From an uncultured delta proteobacterium (GTDB taxonomy: Bacteria > Desulfobacterota > Binatia > UBA9968), in assembly GCA_963847445.1 (NCBI GenBank), contig CAWJZV010000002.1, positions 1-64,000 of the forward strand: 64,000 nucleotides of DNA, in the 5' to 3' direction. Numbering within the stretch: position 1 is the first letter of the stretch; each line of letters starts with the position of its first letter. Below, piece by piece: positions 40,187 through 42,139 of this stretch. The notes under the pieces were generated by a model. It worked only from the letters and a program-made list of their open reading frames with translations, did not search any database and was not told the origin of the DNA. Made by a program: the position numbers and the translations under genes.

Positions 40187-42139
40187 TTATCGGCTCGCCG
40201 TCTTGTCCCGGCTGGAGATCGGTGCTGTCTGCGCACTCATCGCGGGATTCATAATCGAATAGATCACCACGCGGTCGCTCGCCTCGCGATCTTCGCCGCG
40301 CAAGCGCACGCGCACGCGGTCTTTTTCTGAGCTCGGAATATTTTTGCCGACGTAATTGGGCTTCACCGGCACTTCGCGGTGGCCGCGGTCGACGAGCACG
40401 GCTAAGCGCACCGACTGCGGCCGGCCCGAGCGAAAGATGATGCTCAACGCGCTTTTCACCGTGCGGCCGGTATAGATCACGTCGTCGACTAGAACCACTT
40501 CGCGATCTTTCAGGCTGGGCGGTCCGAGATCGGGATCGCTGGGGACCATGCGCCGGAGTTCGTCGCCGGAGCCGTAGATTTCGATCTCGCCCAGCTCCGG
40601 TCTGCGTTTGCGCTGCGCTTCGATCGCATTGGCGATGCGTTGGGCCAGGAGCGAGCCGACACTGCGCACGCCAAGAATCAACAACCGGTCGGGGTCGCGG
40701 CAGTCGCGCAAAATCTGCCGGCTCATTTCGCCAAGCGCAGCCTCGATCTCGTCTCGGACATGAGTATCCGCTGCGCGCTGCTCGCTCGTCGGCTCGTAAC
40801 CCAACTCTTCGGCTTCTTTGATCGAGTCGAACAAGGCCAGCTCGCCCTTGTCCCACCAATCGCGCAACGTCTCGCTGAGCGTGGCGTCGAAGGACGAATA
40901 GCGTTTGGCTTTGACATTGCCGACATAGTCGACTTTGAAACGATGATCGCAGTAGTCGCAGCCGAGGATCAGCGCGCCCATAGGGTCGGCGAAATAGATG
41001 CGAAAGCGCCGCTCCGTCGATGCCGGCTCTTTCACCGTGATGCAGTTGGCATTATGGCACTTGGCGCCGATGGGTTCAGGGCTGCGATAGGAACGGTTGG
41101 CCCTATTCGTCGCGGGCTGCTGCGCGCGATTGCTGCGGAATAGAAATTCGAGCAGCGCCATGCGCACCGGCACACCGTAAGCGGCTTGTTTGAAATAGAT
41201 GCCGCGCCGGTCCTTGTCGAGTTCCGGCGACAGTTCATCGACACGCGGCAACGGATGCATCACCACGGTATTCTGAAAACGCTTTTCCTGGAGAAACTCC
41301 GGACCGATGGTCGGATAGTTGCCGTTGGCGGCGCCCTCTTTCATCCGCTCTTTCTGTTTCCGGGTCATGTAAAAAGCGTCGTAGCGCAGGCCGGTCGCCA
41401 TGGTGCTCAGCTGGGATTGGATGACCTTGTCCACTTGCGTATAGAGCGCCAGCTGATGCGGCTGCTTCGGCGTTAAATATAAAGCGTCGGTTTCGGTCAC
41501 GACGGAATTCAAATCTCCCGAAGCCACCGGCGCAAAGCCGTAATCGTACTCCCGCTCCAGCCGCTCGATCACATACTGCGGCAGCTCCATGCCGTTAGCG
41601 GCCAGGGTCACGACGTTAGCGCCGAAGCGCGCCAGCGCATAGACCAAAGAATGGATGGTCCGGCCGTTCTTGAGATCGCCGCACACGACTACCGTCAAGC
41701 CTTTGAGATCGCCCTTCTCCTTGCGCAGCGTATAAAGATCGCACAGCGTCTGGGTCGGATGCTCGTGACCGCCGTCGCCGGCATTGATCACCGGCACATC
41801 GGCATGCTCGGCCATCGCTTGCACCGCGCCGTCCCAATAATGACGCACGACCAACACATCGGCGTAGCTCGACACCACCTTGGCCGTGTCGGCCACGGTC
41901 TCGCCTTTGGCCGTCGAGGAAGCTTTCATGTCCGAGCAGGAGATCACCGAGCCGCCGAGCCGCTGCATGGCCGATTCGAATGACAGCCGGGTGCGCGTGC
42001 TCGGTTCGTAGAACAACGTCGCCATGATCTGCCCGGCGCCGACCCGGTCGGCGCGCAGCTTGTCGGCGCCATCGGCCAGCGCAAAGATCTCTTCGATCTC
42101 ATCGTTGGTCAGGTCGGCAATGGAAATCAGGCCGCGCAT
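40187..42139 (-). CDS. pyrB: Fusion: aspartate carbamoyltransferase catalytic chain + PyrI-like Zn domain + Ada-like module + PyrR-like PRTase domain
   Basis: [24 protein letters not shown]...[32 protein letters not shown] in a single 650-aa ORF. Confidence 0.88.

Follow-up and report, generated by a model that had tools for sequence, protein, structure and literature searches.

A Binatia aspartate carbamoyltransferase that carries a PyrI-type zinc domain and a remodelled PyrR in one chain

Aspartate carbamoyltransferase (ATCase) has long served as a model for allostery, although few regulatory partners of it are known: PyrI and, in the class A enzymes, an inactive dihydroorotase. The class B ATCases of E. 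coli and archaea (PyrB6-PyrI6; 1d09, 2be7, 1pg5) are built from two polypeptides, the catalytic PyrB and the regulatory PyrI, in the latter of which an allosteric domain for cytidine and adenosine triphosphates (CTP/ATP) stands N-terminal to a four-cysteine zinc domain; in the PyrB-PyrI fusions of the Thermotoga/Treponema type (NF009916), the full PyrI, allosteric domain and then zinc domain, is kept within one chain. A further relevant protein is the free-standing PyrR (B. subtilis 1a3c, B. caldolyticus 1non, M. tuberculosis 1w30, T. thermophilus 1ufr), whose RNA-binding face is, according to one review, a basic concave surface and whose binding to RNA is promoted by uridine mono- and triphosphates (UMP/UTP) and opposed by guanosine mono- and triphosphates (GMP/GTP) (PMC7430163). 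Here we describe a gene of an uncultured delta proteobacterium (GTDB Desulfobacterota; Binatia; UBA9968) in which an ATCase catalytic chain, a PyrI-type zinc domain, and a remodelled PyrR form a single chain; it is a real, conserved gene of uncultured Binatia-type bacteria, and probably represents a form of feedback control over the enzyme that has not been studied so far. The gene was found in positions 1 to 64,000 of contig CAWJZV010000002.1 (assembly GCA_963847445.1), a stretch of 64,000 nucleotides referred to below as the window.

The fused gene occupies 40187..42139 on the reverse strand, as do all of its parts listed below, and comprises 650 codons and a stop, with no internal stop codon; in order, it encodes the PyrB catalytic chain, a PyrI_C zinc domain, a connector, and a PyrR-like domain. 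Pfam places OTCace_N at residues 2-139 (167.8 bits), OTCace over two separate stretches (72.7 bits), PyrI_C (PF02748) at residues 360-404 (26.8 bits against a cut-off of 23.4), and Pribosyltran at residues 464-602 (70.2 bits). Two NCBIfam ATCase equivalogs pass over residues 3-333 (TIGR00670 with 291.1 against 236.95, NF002032 with 275.2 against 263), the PyrR equivalog NF003549 passes narrowly over residues 463-627 (141.4 against 138), and the other four PyrR equivalog models stay below cut-off (131.6 against 230, 125.7 against 218, 103.5 against 268, and 84.5 against 140). The model for fusions of the Thermotoga/Treponema type, NF009916, gives 95.7 against a cut-off of 800 and covers residues 40-197 only. 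A monomer model of the protein has a mean predicted local distance difference test (pLDDT) value of 80.7 and a predicted template modelling score of 0.70, and among the matches listed by Foldseek for the full-length model there are catalytic chains only. These results uphold an initial annotation, made from the window alone, that had read PyrB, the PyrI zinc domain, and a phosphoribosyltransferase (PRTase) domain in one open reading frame (ORF) of 650 residues; its description of the layout stands as to the domains, to which a separate, conserved connector of about 50 residues (405-452) between the zinc domain and the PRTase domain has to be added.

The combination is widely conserved. All 8000 of the 8000 database candidates scored match the fused protein, and the best 120 are 640-665 residues long and 73-96% identical, each with OTCace_N, OTCace, and Pribosyltran and most also with PyrI_C; the source labels of the matches are mostly Candidatus Binatia/Binatota, with single metagenome-assembled genomes (MAGs) labelled otherwise. 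Of the 25 genomes of the genus (the genome itself and the unpublished G005 counted), 21 hold a full-length unbroken frame; in three others the copy is interrupted by a contig end or a frame break, and the last has no match. The sister family f2 has the full-length gene in 4 of 5 genomes, single-contig genomes among them. The architecture thus recurs in related genomes, and a stop and separate start between the zinc and PRTase domains occur in no full-length ortholog. Within family f3, the fused gene was found in 0 of 11 genomes, five of which hold an ordinary PyrB (frames of 330-396 residues), and in an even sample of the phylum (401 genomes) the C-terminal 315 residues match in 7 of the 14 genomes of the class and in 0 of the 387 others (E <= 1e-40). 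A separate subunit composed of zinc domain, connector, and PyrR-like domain was considered on account of P0225 and P0131 (313-327 residues) and of a 313-residue frame in G214, and was rejected: these seemingly free forms of 313-327 residues start at the internal 'MAL(L/I)' of the last helix of the catalytic domain, the G214 copy abuts a contig end, and all are truncated calls. Databases name the fused proteins 'aspartate carbamoyltransferase catalytic subunit' or 'phosphoribosyltransferase family protein' and already display the domain combination automatically; a description of a PyrB-PyrI(Zn)-PyrR enzyme, which the initial annotation did not know of either, was not found in the full-text literature (subscription journals and supplements lay outside its scope), nor was one of a PyrB-PyrR protein or of a PyrB with the zinc domain only.

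In this assembly the gene carries one local flaw, suspected beforehand as a pair of compensating indels at 40740-40800. Compared with two orthologous loci, the ORF contains one extra base and then lacks one base 34 nt further on, such that residues 453-465 (40745..40783), bounded by the +1 and -1 indels, are out of frame where eight orthologs share the conserved x-S-(S/G)-x-Q-R-x-L-M-x-E-x. Contigs of relatives from four metagenome runs (four studies) have an extra base behind 40750 in 4/4 runs, and the base at 40785 is absent from them in 2 of the 4 listed runs; these contigs are 90-99% alike to the window, and speak for relatives rather than giving the true sequence of the strain. Among the sequencing runs, the best share of the words of positions 39000-43100 was 0.42. 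The indels are private to this assembly and may be assembly errors.

The catalytic part is that of a complete ATCase. Its carbamoyl-phosphate-binding domain (residues 2-139; 41723..42136; OTCace_N) contains S47-T48-R49-T50, K78, R99-H100, and H127-P-T-Q130, and its aspartate-binding domain with the C-terminal helix (about residues 145-335; 41135..41707; OTCace, with NF002032 covering residues 4-333) contains R160, R260, Q262, and H295-P-L-P298. The motifs named at the outset (STRT, HPTQ, R-x-Q, HPLP, and the four cysteines of the zinc domain) are all present and invariant or nearly so in 69 sequences; in the same alignment, conservation is at least 90%, if not complete, at S47-T48-R49-T50, K78, R99, H127, Q130, R160, R260, Q262, and H295-P298. 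These positions align to the active sites of solved ATCase chains, that of E. coli comprising S-T-R-T, K84, R105, H134, Q137, R167, R229, Q231, and the HPLP loop. The two-domain carbamoyltransferase fold is recovered by Foldseek with template modelling scores (target) of 0.84-0.88 and root-mean-square deviations (rmsd) of 2.2-2.8 A to 1ml4, 1d09, and 3mpu. By sequence, the closest catalytic chains are those associated with PyrI: the chains of M. jannaschii and P. abyssi score 238 bits and that of E. coli about 200, as against about 130 bits for the B. subtilis type. The fused protein is of one catalytic subfamily with the class B enzymes. Unlike them, it bears a family-specific insert of roughly 25-35 residues in the aspartate domain (about residues 225-252; 41384..41467), modelled at low confidence (pLDDT below 50 at residues 227-249), which separates two copies of a strand-plus-TRxQxER motif. 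Both 12-residue copies align to residues 221-233 of 1ml4 (P. abyssi ATCase); the catalytic R and Q are retained in the second copy only, the first, before the insert, being degenerate, and the doubled region is present across the aligned zinc-domain-bearing relatives. A profile search of the genome returned one ATCase above the TIGR00670 cut-off, the fused gene (293.9 bits), which, judging from these sequence comparisons, is best explained as the sole, catalytically competent ATCase of the organism. A second carbamoyltransferase-like gene, at G000:C24:208481-209378 on the reverse strand, is probably an ornithine carbamoyltransferase: its score against the ATCase model, 97.1 bits, does not reach the cut-off. 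This gene, too, seems to be broken into two frames.

Behind the catalytic chain follow a variable linker (residues 336-357; 41069..41134), unconserved in alignments and marked by a dip in pLDDT at residues 344-347, and the PyrI_C-type zinc domain (about residues 358-404; 40928..41062), whose ligands C361, C366, C394, and C397 are invariant among 69 aligned relatives. The sole PyrI_C match in the genome is the fused gene (30.8 bits), and 28 of 30 diverse relatives carry a PyrI_C match, the strongest with an E value of 6.5e-11. When the zinc domain and connector of an ortholog (residues 349-450) were folded alone, the model reached a pLDDT of 88, and the top 24 rows of its Foldseek search were all ATCase regulatory chains, aligned over 42-53 columns (mostly 43-44) with an rmsd of 1.2-2.1 A, 21-37% identity, and E values of 0.04-0.8; in a VIA comparison the best chains were 2be7_D (Z 4.4) and 2yww_B (Z 3.7), aligned at chain residues 100-146. 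The four-cysteine zinc domain is thus common to the fused protein and the class B enzymes, and the Thermotoga/Treponema fusions resemble it in having a zinc domain and in joining catalytic and regulatory parts in one chain. The allosteric domain that both of those systems possess is missing here, as the initial annotation had recognized: PF01948 has no match in the fused protein at E up to 1 and none in the genome, which is 91.8% complete, in a search whose control gave matches in 7 of 14 named genomes.

The connector (residues 405-452; 40784..40927) is a small alpha/beta module predicted at a pLDDT of 88-92, conserved both in relatives that end with it and in relatives that continue into the PyrR-like domain, with a nearly invariant F...A...G(Y/F)xP at its C-terminal end. 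It weakly resembles the N-terminal domain of Ada, with low Z scores (3.4 for 1eyf; 3.0 for 1u8b, 43 residues of which superpose with an rmsd of 1.9 A), these two ranking 3rd and 6th among 48,161 chains compared with the zinc/connector model. The Pfam family Ada_Zn_binding (PF02805) has a match in 1 of 30 relatives (E 0.0034), and residues 405-452 of the fused protein contain no cysteine, so none of the four that bind zinc in Ada.

The C-terminal domain (about residues 455-627; 40259..40777) derives from PyrR, in agreement with the first assignment: in addition to the NF003549 match of 141.4 bits, it aligns end to end (about 170 residues) with solved PyrR structures at 97-117 bits, and it shares with PyrR the fold, the length, a predicted dimer, and the conserved ribose-5-phosphate loop for phosphoribosyl pyrophosphate (PRPP) (residues 548-560; 40460..40498; VLVDDVIxTGRT), of which D552, D553, V554, I555, T557, G558, R559, and T560 are invariant in a 9-sequence alignment. 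How far it has diverged is evident when the motifs of 14 fused PyrR-like domains are set beside those of 13 free PyrRs whose genes directly precede the fused ones. Free proteins and 14/14 fused domains alike retain the D-D...(T/S)-G-x-T phosphate loop. The Y-R-D-D flexible loop is kept in 13/13 free PyrRs and lost in 14/14 fused domains; P-I-(R/K)-A-D, kept in the free proteins, has its 'AD' changed to 'PN' in 14/14 fused copies ('PIRAD' to 'PVKPN'); the N-terminal (S/T)-R-x-A-H-E of the free form is replaced by A-E-M-S-x-Q or similar; and the (S/T)-(R/K)-G of the pyrophosphate (PPi) loop, likewise kept in free PyrR, is S-V-G in the genus and T-K-G in two deeper families. The residues with which B. 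subtilis PyrR binds RNA are reportedly, from the work of Savacool and Switzer in 2002, T18, H22, R27, H140, R141, R146, and K152. Alignment to the Bacillus protein shows T18, R19, H22, and R27 changed to A, E, R, and D in the fused domain, H140, R141, and K152 kept, and R146 changed to K. Besides these losses of YRDD, of 'PIRAD', and of the reported N-terminal RNA-binding positions, the fused copy departs from PyrR in that it is not free-standing and has a true PyrR with its RNA site next door. By these alignments it is a diverged PyrR that has kept the ribose-phosphate pocket and lost some of the marks of catalysis and of RNA binding.

The domain is also predicted to dimerise. A two-copy complex prediction for residues 350-640 scored 0.57, against 0.00 for the best control, which passes a mark reached by 20 of 30 proteins solved as same-chain pairs and by 1 of 23 solved as single chains; contact agreement between runs was at least 89% and pLDDT at least 80. 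The interface is symmetric, is confined to the PyrR part (residues 550, 559, 561-563, 565-566, 569, 574-579, and 588-595), and takes in the fusion-specific 'EVPVKPN' segment. By this prediction, the protein resembles class B ATCases in having a dimerising effector-type domain beyond the zinc domain, which itself lies outside the interface.

Relatives with fewer parts, gathered by an exhaustive search of 50%-identity representatives and an alignment built from it, have the insert-bearing catalytic chain in common and differ in how much is attached to it, in a graded way: PyrB with the zinc domain (about 360-450 residues), PyrB with zinc domain and connector (about 420-490 residues), and PyrB with zinc domain, connector, and PyrR-like domain (about 650 residues). 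The first two forms, about 360-490 residues overall, share with the fused protein the insert-bearing catalytic domain, the zinc domain, and, in the second, the connector, and differ from it in having no PyrR-like domain; they occur under Chloroflexota and Planctomycetota MAG labels, and the form with the connector under those of Dehalococcoidia and Anaerolineales. A 477-residue Planctomycetota cluster of PyrB with zinc domain and connector in Atlas (score 0.79) is a lead only. A crude motif count by regular expressions divided the 150 best representatives into 4 with zinc domain, connector, and PRTase domain, 21 with zinc domain and connector, 34 with the zinc domain, 57 canonical PyrB, and 34 without HPLPR, mostly fragments. 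In a quick tree of 98 catalytic domains kept from 153 by a motif filter that removed fragments and multidomain proteins (LG+G4, midpoint root), all six PyrR-bearing rows fall inside a 46-row cluster rich in the two shorter forms (Shimodaira-Hasegawa-like approximate likelihood ratio support 94); with 3 changes of the label required and weakly supported inner branches, no order of domain gain is read from the tree. The initial annotation had proposed that a PyrR domain took the place of the PyrI allosteric domain as effector sensor, and this needs correcting to the extent that the exchange is not one of equivalent parts: the PyrR-like domain is C-terminal and attached through a connector, relatives with the zinc domain only exist, and an intact pyrR lies upstream; successive additions to a zinc-domain-bearing PyrB look to be a better reading of the layout than replacement.

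Other composite proteins came to light in the same survey. P0222 is a classical PyrB-PyrI fusion (PF01948 at residues 310-401, PF02748 at 405-451) of the Thermotoga/Treponema kind; P0204 (464 residues) joins PyrB directly to a cytidine/deoxycytidine monophosphate deaminase zinc-binding domain (PF00383, 60.9 bits), a further case of PyrB bearing a pyrimidine-binding domain, and has no PyrI_C; and P0253 is a PyrB with zinc domain and a further tail. An Atlas cluster of 69 Actinomycetota members (484 residues), with OTCace_N and OTCace, Pribosyltran on 90%, and no PyrI_C listed, possibly represents another kind of PyrB/PRTase fusion; since its score of 0.82 does not reach the mark of 0.9, it is a lead only.

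The gene order in clean orthologous loci is PyrR-binding leader, pyrR, fused pyrB, carA, carB, and recG. In the window, the stand-alone pyrR (42350..42911) lies directly upstream on the same, reverse strand as two overlapping ORFs; it is intact in clean orthologous loci (197-199 residues; NF003549, 190.6 bits), and relatives from 3 of 4 runs are without the base at 42873, at its start. Beside this separate gene, intact in clean loci, the fused domain is an additional, specialised copy of PyrR. Immediately upstream of pyrR, also on the reverse strand, lies a PyrR-binding RNA leader (Rfam RF00515; 42913..43024; full model 1-115), which emerged in the E-value mode of the Rfam scan; at the gathering threshold the whole window gave no match, because the leader, at 53.9 bits, narrowly misses the gathering score of 54. 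Of 10 loci, 9 have this element just 5' of the free pyrR (48.6-56.2 bits, full model), and no second RF00515 site precedes the fused gene in the loci examined. Directly downstream of the fused gene, carA (39071..40182, reverse strand) is spread over several frames in this assembly and intact in orthologous loci (374-387 residues; TIGR01368, 518.7 bits); single bases at 39160, 39459, 39877, and 39986 are absent from relatives. Altogether carB and carA (35764-40236) and pyrR (42350-42911), all on the reverse strand, are frame-split here and intact in the loci of two other genomes; indel errors are likely behind the splits and would inflate pseudogene counts for this genome. The pyrR-pyrB intergenic region holds, at 42270-42330, a copy of a dispersed repeat of about 55 nt, with 40 scored matches (187 first-look candidates) at 84-97% identity over the contigs of the genome. 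Over 42151-42424 the depth of contigs is about 10 to 30 times higher in each of the four metagenome runs, many loose contig ends lie at 42276 and 42313-42315, and a perfect 10+10-nt palindrome is found at 42240-42259.

The interpretation favoured here, to which we assign a little better than an even chance, is that a nucleotide-sensing, dimerising regulatory module has been built into the ATCase chain, through docking of the zinc domain, PyrR-type dimers, tuning by a ligand, and a separate control of RNA. The zinc domain, reached through a linker of about 20 residues from the C-terminal helix, would dock on the catalytic chain in the way known for PyrI of class B enzymes. Markby, Zhou, and Schachman reportedly observed in 1991 that the PyrI zinc domain, when isolated, binds the catalytic trimer of E. 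coli and changes its kinetics; that complex involved an engineered fragment and not a natural fusion, and zinc-only docking is what the relatives with the zinc domain only would need. The connector would carry a PyrR-derived domain that has given up RNA binding and probably a uracil phosphoribosyltransferase (UPRTase) role, keeping the ribose-5-phosphate pocket and dimerisation. The catalytic domains would trimerise as in all ATCases, and three PyrR-type dimers would tie two trimers into a hexamer comparable to (c3)2(r2)3. A phosphoribosyl ligand in the PyrR pocket would modulate activity, the likeliest ligands being uridine nucleotides, which guanine nucleotides or PRPP might counteract as they do in PyrR, and control of the operon at the RNA level would be left to the separate upstream PyrR and its binding site. 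Docking, the hexamer, the identity of the ligand, and the allosteric effect are matters that we infer. So conceived, the protein would work most like a class B ATCase, yet without the PyrI allosteric domain and the separate regulatory chain.

Several observations weigh against this interpretation. The T-(R/K)-G of the PPi loop is S-V-G in the genus, and the T-G-R-T loop is S-G-W-T or T-G-M-T in divergent fused clades, so ligand binding may have been altered or lost. The dimer prediction may owe its score to the resemblance to solved PyrR dimers more than to this copy itself, and the monomer model yields no contacts or quaternary structure. The effector domain sits on the opposite end of the zinc domain from that of PyrI, and the signal path of the E. 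coli enzyme cannot, for that reason, simply be assumed. Lastly, many relatives end in the zinc domain or the connector and have no nucleotide-binding domain whatsoever; the C-terminal additions may serve structure and not sensing.

That last point leads to the alternative that fares best, an unlikely but by no means negligible one, in which the PyrR-like and zinc domains would assemble or stabilise a hexamer or trimer, the pocket would be a relic, and no regulation would take place. Such a role agrees with the evident usefulness of the C-terminal extension, in the two shorter forms, without a nucleotide-binding domain, with the degraded catalytic and RNA-binding signatures of PyrR, and with dimerisation being the sole positive prediction for the domain; it is hard to square with a D-D...(T/S)-G-x-T loop conserved in 14/14 fused copies from families only 42-62% identical, and with the invariance of that loop in nine aligned sequences, which is unexpected for a relic pocket. 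Very unlikely is a bifunctional enzyme whose C-terminal domain would still be an active UPRTase and would unite de novo synthesis and salvage in one protein. PyrR proteins do have UPRTase activity, as the family name records, and the PRPP loop is intact, but the YRDD loop is lost in 14/14 fused copies, the arginine/lysine of the PPi loop is replaced in the genus, four of the five PyrR equivalog models remain below cut-off, and the Pfam UPRTase match in the fused protein has an E value no better than 0.021.

We likewise regard as highly improbable that the protein is a 'trigger enzyme', whose fused domain would bind the pyr leader RNA or pair with free PyrR and let the state of the enzyme feed back on operon expression. 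In its favour, a PyrR-binding RNA and the gene of a free PyrR lie just upstream, the C-terminal basic positions corresponding to H140, R141, and K152 are kept (R146 being K), and PyrR-type dimer contacts are predicted; against this, the positions of T18, R19, H22, and R27, with their part in RNA binding, are A, E, R, and D, each locus has one RF00515 site, located before the free pyrR, and the interface segment reads 'VPVKPN' in the fused and 'LPIRAD' in the free proteins, which argues against mixed dimers. That assembly errors joined pyrB to a neighbouring gene, as the many single-base indels here, the broken frames of pyrR, carA, and carB, and the compensated pair inside the fused ORF might suggest, is refuted, since the same single frame occurs in dozens of independent assemblies, the single-contig G025 included, and in thousands of database proteins, and no full-length ortholog has a stop between the domains.

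A broader proposition, which we consider possible but doubtful, extends the favoured interpretation of a regulatory module built into the chain: the PyrI zinc domain would be a general docking adaptor for different sensor modules, and the ATCase of Binatia-type bacteria a hexamer with three dimers derived from PyrR where the classical enzyme has its regulatory dimers. It would include a PyrR-style logic acting directly on the enzyme, with uridine nucleotides turning it off and guanine nucleotides or PRPP turning it on, while the sister PyrR acts on the RNA leader.

Should the regulatory module be real, the coupling of a zinc docking piece from PyrI with a PyrR-derived, ligand-binding dimer would reveal interchangeable parts of an allosteric machine, and the forms with zinc domain, with zinc domain and connector, and with zinc domain, connector, and PyrR-like domain would serve as natural deletion variants for dissecting how the signal is transmitted. 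It would also show that a nucleotide sensor fold was duplicated to control both the operon RNA and the first committed enzyme. If the zinc domain proved to be a general docking adaptor, the fused enzyme would represent a second, independently evolved ATCase allostery, and the relatives with the zinc domain only or with zinc domain and connector would be its living intermediates.

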